In this document: piece after piece, positions 2,368 to 53,733 of the stretch
Layout of the letters: the number at the start of each line of letters is the position of its first letter
Numbering within the stretch: the stretch's first letter is position 1
Origin: Escherichia coli
GTDB taxonomy: Bacteria > Pseudomonadota > Gammaproteobacteria > Enterobacterales > Enterobacteriaceae
Assembly (NCBI RefSeq): GCF_024700885.2
Contig: NZ_CP117016.1
Reading direction: 5' to 3' (one strand)
DNA length: 64,000 nucleotides
Position numbers and translations under genes: made by a program
The notes under the pieces: model-generated
Databases searched by the model: none
Told to the model about the DNA's origin: nothing
Seen by the model: the letters and a program-made list of their open reading frames with translations, nothing else

Positions 2368-5300
2368 ATGAGCGGAAAACCGGCGGCGCGTCAGGGCGAC
2401 ATGACGCAGTATGGCGGTAGCATTGTTCAGGGTTCAGCCGGGGTACGTATTGGTGCCCCCACCGGCGTGGCCTGTTCGGTGTGCCCCGGCGGGGTGACGT
2501 CCGGCCATCCGGTCAATCCGCTGCTCGGTGCGAAGGTCCTTCCCGGCGAAACCGACCTTGCCCTGCCCGGCCCGCTGCCGTTCATCCTCTCCCGCACCTA
2601 CAGCAGTTACCGGACAAAAACGCCCGCGCCGGTGGGGAGCCTCGGCCCCGGCTGGAAAATGCCCGCGGATATCCGCTTACAGCTGCGCGATAACACACTG
2701 ATACTCAGTGATAACGGCGGCAGGAGCCTGTATTTTGAGCACCTGTTTCCCGGTGAGGACGGTTACAGCCGCAGCGAGTCACTCTGGCTGGTGCGCGGCG
2801 GCGTGGCGAAACTGGATGAAGGTCACCGGCTGGCCGCACTCTGGCAGGCACTGCCGGAAGAGCTTCGCCTGAGTCCGCATCGTTATCTGGCGACGAACAG
2901 TCCGCAGGGGCCGTGGTGGGTACTCGGCTGGTGTGAGCAGGTGCCGGAGGCGGATGAGGTGCTGCCCGCGCCGCTGCCGCCGTACCGGGTACTGACCGGG
3001 CTGGTGGACCGCTTCGGGCGCACACAGACGTTTCACCGTGAGGCTGGCGGCGAAATCACCGGCGTGACGGATGGCGCAGGCCGTCACTTCCGGCTGGTAC
3101 TGACCACGCAGGCGCAGCGGGCAGAAGAAGCCCGGCAGCAGGCCATTTCCGGCGGGACGGAACCGTCCGCTTTTCCTGATACCCTGCCGGGTTACACCGA
3201 ATATGGCCGGGACAACGGCATCCGTCTGTCTGCCGTGTGGCTGACACACGACCCGGAATATCCGGACAACCTGCCAGCCGCGCCGCTGGTACGCTATGGC
3301 TGGACGCCGCGTGGCGAACTGGCGGCGGTGTATGACCGCAGCAATACACAGGTGCGCAGCTTTACTTACGATGATAAATACCGGGGCCGGATGGTGGCGC
3401 ACCGTCACACGGGCCGACCGGAAATCCGTTACCGTTACGACAGTGACGGGCGGGTGACAGAACAGCTAAACCCGGCGGGCTTAAGCTACACGTATCAGTA
3501 TGAGAAAGACCGCATCACCATCACCGACAGCCTGGACCGCCGTGAAGTCCTGCACACGCAGGGCGAAGGCGGGCTGAAGCGGGTGGTGAAAAAGGAACAC
3601 GCGGACGGCAGCGTCATGCAGAGTCAGTTTGACGCGGTGGGCAGGCTTAAGGCACAGACGGATGCCGCAGGCCGGACGACTGAGTACAGCCCGGATGTGG
3701 TGACGGGACTCATCACGCGCATCACCACACCGGATGGCAGGGCATCGGCATTTTACTATAACCACCACAACCAGTTAACGTCAGCCACCGGGACTGACGG
3801 GCTGGAGTTGCGCCGGGAATATGATGAATCCGGCCGTCTGATTCAGGAAACCGCACACAACGGCGATATCACCCGCTACCGTTATGATAATCCACACAGT
3901 GACTTACCCTGCGCAACGGAAGATGCCACCGGCAGCCGGAAAACCATGACATGGAGCCGTTACGGTCAGTTGCTGACCGTCACTGACTGTTCCGGTTATG
4001 TAACCCGTTATGACCATGACCGTTTTGGTCAGGTGACGGCGGTGCACCGCGAGGAAGGGCTGAGTCAGTACCGCGCATACGACAGCCGTGGACAGTTAAT
4101 TGCGGTGAAAGACACGCAGGGCCATGAAACGCGGTATGAATACAACGCCGCCGGTGACCTGACCGCCGTCATTGCCCCGGACGGCAGCAGAAACGGGACA
4201 CAGTACGATGCGTGGGGAAAGGCCATCCGTACCACGCAGGGCGGTCTGACGCGCAGTATGGAATACGATGCTGCCGGACGGGTCATCCGCCTGACCAGTG
4301 AAAACGGCAGCCACACCACCTTCCGTTACGATGTACTTGACCGGCTGATACAGGAAACCGGCTTTGACGGCCGCACACAGCGTTATCACCACGACCTGAC
4401 CGGCAAACTTATCCGCAGCGAGGATGAGGGGCTGGTCACCCACTGGCACTATGACGAAGCAGACCGCATCACGCACCGCACCGTGAAGGGTGAACCGGCA
4501 GAGCAGTGGCAGTATGATGAACGCGGCTGGCTGACACAAATCAGCCATCTCAGCGAAGGCCACCGGGTGACGGTGCATTACGGGTATGATGAGAAAGGCC
4601 GCCTGACCGGTGAGCGCCAGACGGTGCATCACCCGCAGACGGAAGCACTGCTCTGGCAGCATGAAACCAGACACGCTTACAACGCGCAGGGACTGGCGAA
4701 CCGCTGTATACCGGACAGCCTGCCCGCCGTGGAATGGCTGACTTACGGCAGCGGCTGGCTGGCAGGCATGAAACTCGGCGACACACCGCTGGTGGAGTAT
4801 ACCCGCGACCGCCTGCACCGGGAAACGCTGCGCAGCTTCGGCCGTTATGAACTCACCACCGCTTATACCTCTGCCGGGCAGTTACAGAGCCAGCACCTGA
4901 ACAGCCTGCAGTATGACCGCGATTACACCTGGAACGACAACGGCGAACTCATCCGCATCAGCAGCCCGCGACAGACCCGGAGTTACAGCTACAGCGACTC
5001 CGGCAGGCTGACCGGCGTCCACACCACCACCTCAAATCTGGATATCCGCATCCCGTATGCCACGGACCCGGCAGGCAACCGCCTGCCCGACCCGGAGCTG
5101 CACCCGGACATCACCCTCAGCATGTGGCCGGATAACCGTATCGCCCGTGACGCGCACTATCTTTACCGGTATGACCGTCACGGCAGACTGACGGAGAAAA
5201 CCGACCTCATCCCGGAAGGGGTTATCCGCACGGACGATGAGCGGACTCACCAGTACCATTACGACAGTCAGCACCGGCTGGTGCACTACACGCGGACACA

Positions 5301-6555
5301 ATATGCAGAGCCGCTGGTCGAAAGTCGCTATCTTTACGACCCGCTGGGCCGCAGGGTGGCAAAACGGGTATGGCGGCGTGAACGGGACCTGACGGGCTGG
5401 ATGTCGCTGTCACGGAAACCGGAAGTGACCTGGTACGGCTGGGACGGCGACCGGCTGACCACGATACAGAACGACAGAACCCGCATCCAGACGGTTTATC
5501 AGCCGGGGAGCTTCACGCCACTCATCAGAGTTGAAACCGCCACCGGTGAGCTGGCGAAAACGCAGCGCCGCAGCCTGGCGGATGCGCTTCAGCAGTCCGG
5601 CGGCGAAGACGGTGGCAGTGTGGTGTTCCCGCCGGTGCTGGTGCAGATGCTCGACCGGCTGGAAAGTGAAATCCTGGCTGACCGGGTGAGTGAGGAAAGC
5701 CGCCGCTGGCTGGCATCGTGCGGCCTGACGGTGGAGCAGATACAAAACCAGATGGACCCGGTGTACACGCCGGCGCGAAAAATCCACCTGTACCACTGCG
5801 ACCATCGCGGCCTGCCGCTGGCGCTTGTCAGCACGGAAGGGGCAACAGAATGGTGCGCAGAATACGATGAATGGGGCAACCTGCTGAATGAAGAGAACCC
5901 GCACCAGCTGCAGCAGCTCATCCGCCTGCCGGGTCAGCAGTATGATGAGGAGTCAGGCCTGTATTACAACCGCCACCGCTATTATGACCCGCTGCAGGGG
6001 CGGTATATCACTCAGGATCCGATTGGGCTGAAGGGGGGATGGAATTTTTATCAGTATCCGTTAAATCCGGTTCAGTATATAGATTCAATGGGACTGGCAT
6101 CTAAATATGGACACTTAAATAATGGCGGATATGGAGCGAGACCCAACAAACCGCCTACGCCCGATCCAAGTAAGTTGCCAGACATAGCGAAACAATTAAG
6201 ACTGCCATATCCTATTGACCAGGCCAGTAGTGCGCCTAATGTTTTCAAAACATTCTTCAGAGCATTAAGTCCTTACGATTACACACTGTATTGCAGGAAG
6301 TGGGTAAAACCCAATCTGACTTGTACGCCGCAGGATGATCCCCAGTATCCAGGGATGGAGACAAAGACAGCAAGTGATTACCTGCCACAGACAACTTGGC
6401 CAACAACTCAATTACCACCAGGATATACTTGTGCAGAACCCTATTTATTCCCAGACATTAATAAACCCGATGGGCCAGCAACAGCAGGGATAGATGATTT
6501 GGGTGAAATTTTAGCTAAAATGAAACAGAGAACATCGAGAGGAATAAGAAAATGA
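2368..6555 (+). CDS. rhsA: Rhs polymorphic toxin: PAAR-like N-terminus, YD-repeat core, variable C-terminal toxin tip
   Basis: 1395-aa ORF; N-terminal [17 protein letters not shown] (PAAR-like); many YD/RYxYD repeats; core ends with the DPIGL motif near nt 6016-6030, followed by an AT-rich ~175-codon tip of unrecognised family. Confidence 0.93.
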
Positions 6556-7289: not shown

Positions 7290-7637
7290 ATGAGAAACTC
7301 ACTAATATTACTTATTATGATATTGTTTACAATATCACACTCAGTATTTGGAAAAGAAAATTCAGCGGAAATTTTAGTAAATAGTCGTGAAATGGCTTTG
7401 GAATTATCATATGTTTATATTAAATATATATACGGGAAAGAAAAAGCAGAATTTCAGAAACCATATAGTATTACAGATGACAATAATTGTTGGAAAATCG
7501 AGGGAAAACAACCGAAGACGTTAGGAGGAAATTTTACAATACTAATAGCGAAAAAAGATGGGCAAGCGTTGGATGTAATACACAAAATAATCCACTGTTC
7601 AGACGATTCAAATATTTTACCAAGGTGTGTTTCGTAA
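7290..7637 (+). CDS. small secreted hypothetical protein, possible orphan immunity protein
   Basis: 115-aa ORF with signal-peptide-like N-terminus MRNSLILLIMILFTISHSVFG; has a frameshifted paralog at 9240-9507; sits in the Rhs-associated AT-rich region. Confidence 0.5.
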   Translation: MRNSLILLIMILFTISHSVFGKENSAEILVNSREMALELSYVYIKYIYGKEKAEFQKPYSITDDNNCWKIEGKQPKTLGGNFTILIAKKDGQALDVIHKIIHCSDDSNILPRCVS

Positions 7638-8080: not shown

Positions 8081-8654
8081 TCAAGATGAGGCTGATATAA
8101 TGTGCGGAATGCCTGAGTATTTTTAGAATAGGGGGGTAATATGTTTGATAGAATATATCTTGGTGATCGAGCAATAAAAAATTGAATTTGATTTATGGAG
8201 TAAACAAATTAGAATTCAGGTTAATTTAATCTCAAGGATAGCCTATGGTACAACAGAATGGAATTTTTATGATAATGAAGACTTAGAAGATGGTTATTTG
8301 GTATTTTCAGATGTTAGTTTCTTCAATATAACTCCTAATGGCTCTATTCCAGATGATTATATAATTTCAATAATTACAGATAATGTCAATGTTGAATATT
8401 TTGAATCAACTATAGTTGCTGTTGGTCAAATTCGAAACACAAATGTTGGTGACATTGATAATATTGGTGAATGTCAAATTTTCATCAGGTATAAAGACAG
8501 CTGGATTGAGAATAAACTCAAAGAAAAAATAATTGAATAACCATGTTATGTATAGACATTTTAGATGGAACGAACCAGAGGAAGGCATGCCTCCGACTTG
8601 GGTTATATGGGCACGGAGTTTTAGTGTAGTGAACTCAACGACGCAAACCGAATA

Positions 8655-8720
8655 ACCTGCCGCTGGCGCTTATCAGCACGTAAGGGACAACAGCGTAGTA
8701 CGTAGAATAATCCTACCCAC
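8655..8720 (+). pseudogene. short decayed relic of the Rhs core 3' end
   Basis: cctgccgctggcgcttatcagcacg is near-identical to rhsA 5811-5835 and to the yibJ copy at ~10669-10693; similarity decays downstream and is interrupted by stops. Confidence 0.5.
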
Positions 8721-8792
8721 GTAGTATGGACACAGGCCTAAGCGAGGTTCTGGTTTTCAAATTTTTCGGGAGTTAGATGATTGGAGGAACAG

Positions 8793-9158
8793 ATGATAAG
8801 AATCGCATTTTTAATAACCAATAAATTTCTTGAGATAGATAGTACCACTCTTGCTGGATATGATTTTAGCGGGATGAATCTACATCGTGCCACCCTCAAT
8901 GGTTATTGTCTTGATGGGGCGAAATTTGAAAAAACTCATTTAAGAAATGTAATGATTCAACATACATCAACTAGAAATGCTGTCTTTCGCAATGCGGCTC
9001 TGATGAATGCTATTCTGAATAACTCAGATTTCACTGGAAGTGATTGTAGTAATTCAAGGTCAATAGGTGAAAATTTTAAAGCAATAGATAATCATGGGAA
9101 AGATATAATAAATGGAAAAGGATTGCCTAATGTTTGCAAAATACATGACAACGTATAA
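8793..9158 (+). CDS. pentapeptide-repeat protein, hypothetical
   Basis: ORF with GGAGG RBS 5 nt upstream of ATG 8793 (the track ORF begins at an in-frame TTG at 8781); sequence shows pentapeptide-like periodicity (GMNLHRATLNGYCLDGAKFEKTHLRNV...AVFRNAALMNAILNNSDFTGSD). Confidence 0.5.
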   Translation: MIRIAFLITNKFLEIDSTTLAGYDFSGMNLHRATLNGYCLDGAKFEKTHLRNVMIQHTSTRNAVFRNAALMNAILNNSDFTGSDCSNSRSIGENFKAIDNHGKDIINGKGLPNVCKIHDNV

Positions 9159-9239
9159 GAAAATATTATTCAGAACCTATGTGATTGTATCTTTATTTTT
9201 ACATACAACACATGGGCGCAGTGTAATAATATTATTATA

Positions 9240-9507
9240 ATGCGCAAGTATGAAAGTGAGGGGAAATACACCGTTAGAAATTTGGTCAAAAATAAAGCTA
9301 TAGCATTGGAATTAGCTGAGATGTATGTTAAAAATCGTTATGGACATGATGCCGAAGAAGAAAAAAAAACCATACAAAATCATGGAATTACCAACAAGTT
9401 GGATTGTTGAAGGCACCATTGAATCAGACCAAATTGCTGGTAGGGTTTTTATTATAGAAATAGGCAAAAATGACGGGAGAATTCTAAATTTTGGCCACGG
9501 AAAATAA
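9240..9507 (+). pseudogene. frameshifted paralog of the 7290-7637 gene, interrupted in an A9 homopolymer
   Basis: frame A (9240-9410, MRKYESEGKYTVRNLVKNKAIALELAEMYVKNRYGHDAEEEKK) and frame B (9325-9507, ...PYKIMELPTSWIVEGTIESDQIAGRVFIIEIGKNDGRILNFGHGK) together align with the 7290 protein (SREMALELSYVYIKYIYGKEKAEFQKPYSITDDNNCWKIEG...ILIAKKDGQALDVIHKI); the frames meet at the A9 run 9361-9369; losing one A restores one ORF. Confidence 0.6.
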
Positions 9508-9611
9508 GTATGTAAGGATAAACAAACATCGTGTGTGCTGATGGCAGAGTAGGTGGAGGACTCCAGACAGTCAAACGATAGAAAAAGATAGTCTTTATGG
9601 AGGTTCCTGCA

Positions 9612-10454
9612 ATGTCGAATACATACCAGAAAAGAAAGGCAAGTAAAGAGTATGGTTTATACAATCAATGTAAGAAACTAAATGATGATGAATTATTTCG
9701 CTTACTTGATAATCGCAATTCATTGAAAAGGATTTCATCTGCCAGAGTATTGCAGCTAAGAGGTGGGCAAGACGCTGTTAGATTGGCAATTGAATTCTGC
9801 GCTGACAAAAATTATATCCGTAGAGATATAGGAGCATTTATACTCGGGCAAATAAAAGTTTGCAAAAAATGCGAAGATAGCGTTTTTAATATTTTAAAAA
9901 AGATGGCACTGAATGATAAAAGTGCTTGCGTTCGAGCTACAGCAATCGAGTCAACTGCTCAGCGATGCAAGAAAAACCCAATTTATTCACCTAAAATAGT
10001 AGAACAATCTCAAATTACTGCTTTTGATAAATCGGCTAATGTCAGACGTGCTACGGCATTTGCTATTTCTGTTATCAATGATAAAGAAACAATTCCACTA
10101 TTGATTAATCTGTTAAAAGATCCAAATGGAGATGTCAGAAACTGGGCCGCATTTGCAATAAATATCAATAAATATGATAATAGTGATATTAGGGATTATT
10201 TTGTGGAGATGCTTCAGGATAAAAATGAGGAAGTCCGTATTGAAGCAATAATCGGACTTTCCTACAGAAAAGATAAAAGGGTTTTATCTGTTTTATGCGA
10301 TGAGTTAAAAAAAAATACTGTTTATGATGATATCATTGAAGCTGCGGGTGAATTAGGTGATAAAACGCTACTTCCTGTTTTAGATACTATGTTGTACAAG
10401 TTTGATGACAATGAAATTATAACTTCCGTTATTGATAAGCTGAAGCGTTCATAG
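9612..10454 (+). CDS. yibA: HEAT-repeat protein
   Basis: N-terminus MSNTYQKRKASKEYGLYNQ at the internal ATG 9612 matches recalled YibA; repeated D/N-x-x-VR-x-x-A HEAT-like units; lies between Rhs modules. Confidence 0.8.
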   Translation: MSNTYQKRKASKEYGLYNQCKKLNDDELFRLLDNRNSLKRISSARVLQLRGGQDAVRLAIEFCADKNYIRRDIGAFILGQIKVCKKCEDSVFNILKKMALNDKSACVRATAIESTAQRCKKNPIYSPKIVEQSQITAFDKSANVRRATAFAISVINDKETIPLLINLLKDPNGDVRNWAAFAININKYDNSDIRDYFVEMLQDKNEEVRIEAIIGLSYRKDKRVLSVLCDELKKNTVYDDIIEAAGELGDKTLLPVLDTMLYKFDDNEIITSVIDKLKRS

Positions 10455-10495
10455 CGTGAGTTGCCTATGCACAGTGAGGTATTCCCGCCGGCACG

Positions 10496-11305
10496 GTGCA
10501 GATGCTCGACCGGCTGGAAAGTGAAATCCTGGCTGACCGGGTGAGTGAGGAAAGCCGACGCTGGCTGGCATCGTGCGGCCTGACGGTGGCGCAGATGCAA
10601 AACCAGATGGACCCGGTGTACACGCCGGCGCGAAAAATCCACCTGTACCACTGCGACCATCGCGGCCTGCCGCTGGTGCTTATCAGCACGGAAGGGGCAA
10701 CAGAATGGTGCGCAGAATACGATGAGTGGGGCAACCTGCTGAATGAAGAGAACCCGCACCAGCTGCAGGGGCGGTATATCACTCAGGATCCGATTGGACT
10801 GAAGGGGGGATGGAATTTTTATCAGTATCCGTTGAATCCGATAACTGATATTGACCCGTTGGGATTAGCGACCTGTTTATACAGCATAACTTTAGGTATG
10901 CTTTCATGCGTTTCAGATACGCCAAGTGATGATAATTCTTATGGTGTGCTTACTATTTCAGTCGCCTCTGGTAATAATGGTAATAATATGCAATGTAAAA
11001 ATAATCCTGGTTGTACACACTTACAAAATAGAGGCCCAATACCTCCAGGGGTATGGAGCTGGAATGTTAATGGTCCTGGAGCAACTAATAGAAAACCTAA
11101 TGGTATACGTTTAGTACCGTCAGCAAATACAGAAACGTATAATCGTGATGGATTTTTAACACATAGTTGTTTAAACGCTTTTGGTCCATCTTTAGGACCT
11201 CGATTCTGTTCCGAGGGTTGTATAACTGGTTCATCTAATGACATGCAAAAATTAAATGAGCTAATATTTTCAGAGCCAGATAGCACATTAACAGTGACGG
11301 ACTAG
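10496..11305 (+). CDS. yibJ: orphan Rhs C-terminal fragment (3' core plus alternative toxin tip) with L,D-transpeptidase-like motif
   Basis: nt ~10472-10840 are near-identical to the rhsA 3' core (5616-6070) including [18 protein letters not shown]; the tip then diverges; tip contains H-S-x14-S-E-G-C-I-T (His codon 11162-11164, Cys codon 11219-11221); symbol is positional only. Confidence 0.7.
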
Positions 11306-11309
11306 AAAT

Positions 11310-11705
11310 ATGGCAAGGTTATTAACAATTGTGCTTTTTTTCTCTATTTCTGCGAATGCAGTTACTGTAAACCAATTTCAGAGAGAGTTGGATTTGGCAG
11401 ACAAGGCAATATTATGGGCACTAATATCAGCCAGTACCCAAGAGGGACGAAAAGCGTGTTCACTTAGCTATTTTTCATGTAAAGCCGCAGAGGCTGAACT
11501 CGGACTGGCATATATGGCTGCTAATGATAACAAGGCATTTCTCACATCCTTATCTAGAATAATGATGTACAAAATAGATGCTGGACTTTCCGAATCCTAT
11601 ACATGCTATTTATTAAGCAAGGGAAAGATCATAAGACCATATCTGAAGAATCTAAATCCACACCAACTTGTCGCTGATTGCATTGAAACTGTAAATAAAA
11701 GATAA
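11310..11705 (+). CDS. putative immunity protein for the orphan Rhs tip, secreted
   Basis: starts 4 nt after the yibJ stop; N-terminus MARLLTIVLFFSISANA is signal-peptide-like; AT-rich. Confidence 0.55.
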   Translation: MARLLTIVLFFSISANAVTVNQFQRELDLADKAILWALISASTQEGRKACSLSYFSCKAAEAELGLAYMAANDNKAFLTSLSRIMMYKIDAGLSESYTCYLLSKGKIIRPYLKNLNPHQLVADCIETVNKR

Positions 11706-12283
11706 AAATAAAAAAATCATTGATATAGATTCAGTTAATATTTGCAATGATAATAAAAATATAAATTGGAGAGTTAATAGTACTATTGTAGCCATTGATG
11801 ATTCTATAAAATGCATCGATGAATAATAACTTAATTATATTTAAAAATATATTAATGACTCACTCTCCAGGAGTTTTTTAACTTAGTGTTATAATGAATA
11901 CGATAATTAAAAGTGAAGAGAAAAATAGTTGTATACATATATTACATGAACCTACATTGTGATCTATAAATTAAATATTTTTAAATGTGACTGTCATCCT
12001 TCAGATAATAAAGCCATCATCGCAATAGATGGAAAAGCACTCCTGCTCTTTTTTGATTAGAGCCGTGGCAGAGGAACAACTCATATCATCATTGCGATCT
12101 CGACAATGTATGGTCTGATCCTTCGGCAGATCAAGACGGATAAAAAATCCAATGAGTTCACACTCATCCCGAACTTCTTAACATAATGGATATTAACGAA
12201 AAATCATCGCAGCCAATGAAGTAATATGCAAAAATAATTAGTCCTTACAGGGAGCAAAGTTCCATAATCTCCCCCTTCCCTAC

Positions 12284-53370: not shown

Positions 53371-53382
53371 CACGCTACCGCC
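53371..53382 (-). promoter_or_regulatory. ops element (RfaH recruitment site) in the waaQ operon leader
   Basis: plus strand cacgctaccgcc is the reverse complement of GGCGGTAGCGTG, about 50 nt upstream of the waaQ start on the minus strand. Confidence 0.75.
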
Positions 53383-53733
53383 CCAGGCTCAACAGCTACC
53401 TGAATACTGATACCGCACTGATATTGACGCGCTAGTGTATCACTTCTTTCGCGGCAATCCGACCCGAATGATTTTTAAGCACATTGTTGATTTTCAATAA
53501 AGAAATCAATCAAATAAAATCATTAGCAACCATATTCTTTCACTGTTGCTCTGCGATTCCTTCCTGCACGTACTGCAGAAATCAATGAATCGCATAAAAA
53601 TACAAAAAAAGTATAGATGTTCAGCAAGAATTGGCGGGTAAATTGCTATTTAAGTCAAAAACGGGAAAAGTAATGGTAAAGCCACAGCTAAATACATAGA
53701 ATCCCCAGCACATCCATAAGTCAGCTATTTACT

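Follow-up and report, generated by a model that had tools for sequence, protein, structure and literature searches.

A nine-adenine frameshift in a decaying orphan yhhH-like immunity gene at the rhsA locus of Escherichia coli

Described systems and the MLI114 locus

Simple-sequence contingency loci are well known in Haemophilus, Neisseria, and Campylobacter. Another class of homopolymer-interrupted genes, the "pseudo pseudogenes", is broken at runs of 9A or 9T, and the open reading frame (ORF) would be restored in the mRNA (Baranov et al. 2005, PMC1088944, where Campylobacter is mentioned too). Both rhs and cdi genes can be followed by orphan toxin/immunity cassettes (Poole et al. 2011, PMC3150448; Koskiniemi et al. 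2014, PMC3967940). Among the toxins concerned here, the DUF4329 domain is the Tox-JAB-2 toxin, which is paired with Imm-NTF2-2, and the YbbC/YhhH family (K-12 yhhH and its paralog ybbC) is predicted to confer immunity to Tox-JAB-2/DUF4329 Rhs toxins (Zhang et al. 2012, PMC3482391).

We analysed a window of 64,000 nucleotides from E. coli MLI114, identical to NZ_CP117013 over the 29.4 kb compared, in which a yhhH-like orphan immunity pseudogene of the Imm-NTF2-2/YbbC-YhhH family (9130-9507, + strand; NL414_RS01120) is interrupted by a run of nine A's (A9). Like K-12 yhhH, this gene has yibA sequence downstream and the 3' tail of a toxin gene upstream, and its repaired 88-aa product is 89% identical to residues 40-127 of K-12 YhhH and matches the Pfam model Imm-NTF2-2 (PF15631) over its full length (E=1.1e-21, model positions 1-68 of 68). 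Unlike K-12 yhhH, the window copy lies at the rhsA locus and not at rhsB, is without the toxin, has its leader uncoupled by a 4-bp deletion, and has its domain split by A9. The surroundings resemble the orphan rhs/cdi cassettes in that displaced C-terminal toxin fragments and immunity genes form a tandem array past a full-length Rhs gene, but the window cassette is an immunity-gene remnant only, disrupted twice. As in the "pseudo pseudogenes", the break in the ORF coincides with a 9A run and other strains have homologs in one intact ORF, yet the window gene needs -1 or +2 nucleotides in the RNA and carries another lesion. Finally, the homopolymer lies in a coding region and differs in length between isolates, as at contingency loci, whereas the window tract is short (8-9 bp), is neither conserved nor maintained, and occurs in a mismatch-repair-proficient species.

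An orphan immunity gene with an older lesion in its leader

The site is the rhsA locus, with the Rhs element placed between yibF and yibH. A full-length Rhs core gene (2368-6555) is followed by its immunity gene, and a paralog to which the first-pass annotation had compared our locus, an intact NTF2-fold immunity gene whose product has a signal-peptide-like N-terminus, lies at 7290-7637 on the + strand. Between that gene and a scrap of rhs core (8560-8709; 92.7% identity to RHS domain genes) is a DUF6258 gene. The scrap and the adjoining IS3 end fragment of ~62 bp (8710-8771; 95% match) are recombination debris, upstream of a 125-aa pentapeptide-repeat ORF (8781-9158) in which the RhsB DUF4329 toxin tail supplies the final 28 residues; PGAP annotates this chimeric junction as two partial pseudogene pieces. 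Downstream of the yhhH-like gene, yibA is intact (9597-10454) and is followed by an orphan Rhs tip with a Tlde1 domain (about 10473-10873) and an Imm57 immunity gene (about 11310-11826). PGAP labels both the Rhs fragment and Imm57 as frameshifted in MLI114, and the whole orphan array is eroding. The orphan region is AT-rich (35% versus 60% GC) and forms a mosaic with the rhs-core and IS3 scraps, and a scan of 8500-9700 for promoters and terminators gave hits at chance level. Elsewhere in the window, a JUMPstart RNA element (Rfam RF01707, 55 bits; 53371-53409, - strand) lies in the LPS core rfaQ-waaG-rfaP region, as expected in E. coli.

The frameshifted status of 9130-9507 is already known from the RefSeq annotation, in which PGAP labels it a frameshifted "NTF2 fold immunity protein". 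Positions 9072 to 9700 share ~90% DNA identity with the K-12 segment that comprises the 3' end of rhsB, yhhH, and a 5' fragment of yibA. In K-12, yhhH encodes 127 aa from a start equivalent to 9130, with AAGGA upstream, and lies directly 3' of the DUF4329 (Tox-JAB-2) toxin tip of RhsB (K-12 RhsB-CT versus DUF4329, E=4.6e-40). In the window, K-12 homology begins at 9072, and directly upstream of the immunity gene the DUF4329 toxin gene is absent except for its last 28 codons (9072-9158, + strand), which are fused to the ORF at 8781-9158 and match the RhsB-CT tail at 21/28 residues. Because only these 28 toxin codons are left, 9130-9507 is an orphan immunity gene.

The A9 tract is not the only lesion. 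At 9187-9200 (+ strand), one TTTG unit is missing relative to TTTGTTTG of K-12 yhhH, a deletion near 9192 that is common to all orphan alleles inspected, which also lack an in-frame AAA. The 4-bp deletion shifts the frame inside the hydrophobic N-terminal segment and cuts the leader off from the domain, leaving a 36-aa leader ORF (9130-9240, + strand) that runs in the wrong frame after the deletion, is preceded by the Shine-Dalgarno-like AAGGA, and is also called as a 36-aa gene on contig L023. It is because of this deletion that alleles of the A9, A8, (GAA)4, (GAA)5, and GCA types are all annotated by PGAP as frameshifted. The TAA stop of the leader ORF overlaps the ATG at 9240 of the 88-aa ORF (TAATG, 9238-9242), an arrangement that could allow termination-reinitiation and translational coupling. 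A hydrophobic N-terminal leader is present in 109 of the 125 family representatives of at least 94 aa, many of which have a lipobox-like Cys, and with a leader so typical of the family, the leaderless 88-aa form is probably mislocalised. No intact ORF with such a leader is present at 9130-9507, where both the 4-bp deletion and A9 disrupt it. The first-pass annotation was right to fuse the two ORFs that flank the tract, but its gene began at 9240 in place of the homologous start at 9130, and the older deletion near 9192 was overlooked.

The A9 tract and its alleles

The tract occupies 9361-9369 on the + strand, with 9360-9371 reading GAAAAAAAAACC (G-A9-CC), and represents a +1 insertion relative to the in-frame A8 of close relatives; in an alignment, column 9361 is a gap in 5/5 of the A8 strains compared. 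As the first-pass annotation had described, two ORFs meet at this run. The upstream ORF (9240-9410, + strand; 56 aa) holds the 5' half of the NTF2 domain, with 43 native residues followed by 13 out-of-frame residues past A9. The downstream ORF (9325-9507; 60 aa) is offset from the upstream one by +1, and only in that frame can the 3' part of the domain be read (9370-9507, + strand; 45 residues, PYKIMELP...NFGHGK), which corresponds to Pfam model positions 24-68. With A9 as encoded, the in-frame domain therefore amounts to roughly its first third. Removing one A gives a single 88-aa ORF, and its homology to the product of the 7290-7637 gene, also claimed earlier, is borne out (38% identity, E=2e-13). 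Scans of the protein against NCBIfam and with PADLOC returned no match. Runs of this kind are not in excess in the window (2 A9/T9 runs observed versus 2.17 expected from shuffles), and both fall in the orphan region, at 34-36% GC.

Comparison across genomes places A9 at the end of a short series of alleles. K-12 yhhH and the 15.TR.026-type orphan allele read GCAGAAGAAGAAAAA (GCA GAA GAA GAA AAA CC); the latter, the class at 96.4% identity, accounts for most of the 95-99% band and is the common one among the 272 complete genomes that carry the orphan allele. The ancestral sequence of the tract is GAAGAAGAAGAAAAA (GAA GAA GAA GAA AAA), which we verified in two genomes (L006 and L007) of seven with matching alignment signatures, and four genomes have an extra GAA triplet. 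The A8 allele (GAA GAA GAA AAA AAA CC), unchanged in length and in frame, is found in 22 complete genomes. A9 is found in 2 of 5,426 complete genomes, MLI114 and E700025 (Pakistan), such that the gene is split in 2 of the 272. Neither A7 nor A10 occurs at the tract among the complete genomes. In a larger collection, 603 contigs carry the 88-aa A8 product and 45 an exact copy of the 56-aa A9 fragment. In this series, a G-to-A change made A8 and a +1 slip then made A9. Outside the G-to-A allele group, K-12-type yhhH and the other orphan alleles read GAAGAAGAAAAA, with a run of A5 only, and the tract is young. Slippage there is recurrent, given that A9 is also found on a second haplotype (L035/L036) and that an A6 variant occurs in two sequencing runs. 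The comparison of tract lengths across relatives proposed in the first-pass annotation thus yields A6, A8, and A9, of which A8 is in frame and A9 and A6 are out of frame.

We note that the purine-rich stretch at 9354-9369 is a mutational hotspot, with C-to-A, G-to-A, +GAA, +A, and -2A changes within 17 nt among close relatives. Outside this stretch, changes among them are very few in the 267-nt ORF.

Homopolymer length errors are common in long-read assemblies, and the first-pass annotation had raised the possibility of such an error, the true genome being A8. The second A9 run of the window, in frame inside the intact yibA (10307-10315, + strand), serves as an internal control for variation in tract length. 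Among 2,953 complete E. coli genomes, this control reads A8 in 210 (7%) and A10 in 3, and the A8 records may be assembly deletions instead of real alleles, since many belong to early long-read-era accession series. The assembly of strain SW4848 is, moreover, full of indels. Against an error, the change at our tract is +1, whereas the control changes are predominantly -1 (210 versus 3), and the tract is the sole indel of MLI114 and E700025 across the 64 kb compared. In addition, A9 is present on 45 contigs and is read in 7/7 of the independent contigs inspected, which are MEGAHIT-style (k127/k141), SPAdes-style (NODE), and one NCBI draft. The occurrence of A9 in metagenome assemblies of short-read style, a short-read origin that we infer from contig naming, means that it is no long-read artefact. 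These independent contigs rule out a sequencing error for the allele, and an A8 genome misread as A9 is exceedingly improbable. Regarding the quality of individual records, yibA is annotated as frameshifted in strain 1943, the one A8 genome checked. In the "complete" assembly of E. coli SW4848 (L012, NZ_CP107284), the Rhs core and YadA-like genes differ by dozens of indels from those of six near-identical strains; consequently, PGAP splits the rhs gene into about ten fragments, and the assembly quality is low.

The distribution of single-nucleotide differences bears on how A9 is transmitted. Contig L024 shares the private 6811-T of MLI114, while the other A9 contigs and E700025 have G. This nesting of 6811-T within the A9 carriers shows that A9 is inherited in a sublineage, and for long enough to gain a mutation. 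The two complete A9 genomes share no SNP in the 64 kb besides the tract, and SNP 57191 (radC, nonsynonymous) groups MLI114 with the A8 strain JNE070796 against E700025, the sole four-gamete conflict with the tract in the 64 kb. As regards the sister status of the two complete A9 genomes, 57191 is a single conflicting site, whereas an A9 clade in which a SNP is nested has support from the metagenome contigs; for reversible switching within a clone, these hints point both ways.

Gene decay weighed against switching and recoding

Our reading is that replication slippage very probably lengthened A8 to a genuine A9 in an orphan yhhH copy undergoing decay, with no programmed switch involved. Sequence comparison with relatives shows the course of events. 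Recombination first deleted the toxin, sparing its last 28 codons. The loss of one TTTG then shifted the leader frame to a stop at 9240 and left a leaderless 88-aa ORF from the ATG at 9240. In one allele group, a G-to-A change turned GAAGAAGAAGAAAAA into GAAGAAG-A8, in frame and replacing Glu with Lys. Lastly, the addition of one A by a slip truncated the product after 43 native residues, with the loss of about two thirds of the Pfam domain. We infer that little or no function was left in the leaderless 88-aa form before A9 arose, in which case the A9 change would be selectively neutral. The suggestion in the first-pass annotation of a true pseudogene holds, given the frameshifted label from PGAP, the reduction of the toxin to 28 codons, and the 4-bp deletion in all alleles inspected.

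A slipped-strand on/off switch, which the first-pass annotation had also proposed, would turn the orphan immunity on (A8) or off (A9) through slipped-strand mispairing as a selected, phase-variable contingency. Its premise of variable tract length is correct, as A6, A8, and A9 coexist among near-identical strains and both in-frame and out-of-frame lengths occur among close relatives. Furthermore, A9 lies on two haplotype backgrounds, and SNP 57191, by which MLI114 sides with an A8 strain and not with the second A9 genome, suggests that tract length is homoplastic. This makes the locus a switch only in a trivial sense. The tract is a recent by-product of one G-to-A change in a single allele group; it is confined to that group instead of being kept across lineages and homologs, and neither K-12-type yhhH nor the remaining orphan alleles have it. 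A9 also appears stably inherited, with a nested SNP, and the gene is otherwise degraded, without leader or toxin partner. The A9 of yibA varies comparably or more (A8 in 210/2,953), and no switch is implied there. The behaviour of the tract is ordinary for any homopolymer of 8-9 bp and not a sign of a selected switch, a reading that we regard as quite unlikely. A leaky "pseudo-pseudogene" is a further alternative, in which a minority of full-length 88/89-aa protein is made and A9 acts as a knock-down, not a null. It could operate in transcription, where the RNA polymerase slips on the nine A's and gives mRNA of A8 or A11, or in translation, by +1 sliding of Lys-tRNA on AAA AAA A, where the codon geometry permits perfect AAA-to-AAA re-pairing in the +1 direction. 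Runs of 9A cause RNA polymerase slippage, which in many bacteria becomes apparent once a run reaches 9A/9T, and E. coli has genes with an A-run frameshift that the mRNA would repair (Baranov et al., PMC1088944); in Shigella spa13, the slipped product reaches 25-30% (PMC5009743). By the length threshold of PMC1088944, the nine A's of the window are a slippery run that is long enough, and since RNA polymerase tends to slip on such runs, part of the mRNA is likely to be in frame. Low-level rescue via transcriptional slippage is therefore possible, and some full-length product is plausible. Repair in RNA needs -1 or +2 nt, however, whereas the E. coli case shown in PMC1088944 involves a single insertion. 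Folding of 9340-9440 revealed no stimulatory structure 3' of the tract (z = -0.10 versus shuffles), and neither the tract nor the two-ORF layout is conserved among homologs, the family representatives being single ORFs. Even a rescued product would still be without leader and toxin partner. Altogether, we judge leaky expression unlikely, and slippage-driven decay of the orphan gene remains our preferred reading.

Programmed frameshifting was tried as a separate candidate and rejected, given the lack of downstream structure and of conservation; the tract region also has no match to an Rfam family, and no Shine-Dalgarno-like motif was seen 5' of the tract.

We also considered whether the leaderless form could retain a role. 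Some 98% of the contigs counted carry the 88-aa ORF in intact form, and a residual function of the leaderless form is therefore possible, although in so young a lineage this does not prove selection. In relatives L027-L034, a +1 T insertion near 9220 (locus position about 1596; GCGCAGTGT to GCGCATGTGT) offsets the 4-bp deletion and restores a 125-aa ORF with leader plus domain. It occurs on two haplotypes, P0003 and P0037, each on ~14-24 contigs, which means that it either arose more than once by mutation or was spread by recombination; selection may still favour the full-length protein in some lineages. The dN/dS relative to K-12 yhhH is ~0.25, most of which divergence may predate the lesions, and only 5 differences exist within the orphan lineage, so that the ratio says little about selection on the 88-aa ORF. 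K-12-type yhhH (the 80-90% identity band), which accompanies the RhsB/DUF4329 toxin, is present in 2,682 of 5,426 complete E. coli genomes, about half. A more speculative proposal is that the leaderless 88-aa protein acts as orphan immunity against RhsB/DUF4329 and that A8/A9 is an incipient switch whose OFF state is softened by transcriptional slippage. We regard this as very unlikely; if true, immunity would be heterogeneous within a clone.

When a homopolymer breaks a frame, the entire gene should be considered, as here both the true start and an older lesion are found further upstream, and public short-read assemblies can decide between an error and an allele without the original reads. 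The locus itself represents ordinary gene decay and has little importance on its own. Its value lies in being a fully traceable case in which a point mutation in a purine-rich stretch created a homopolymer that then slipped, and in providing an example of how orphan immunity genes erode in Rhs arrays.
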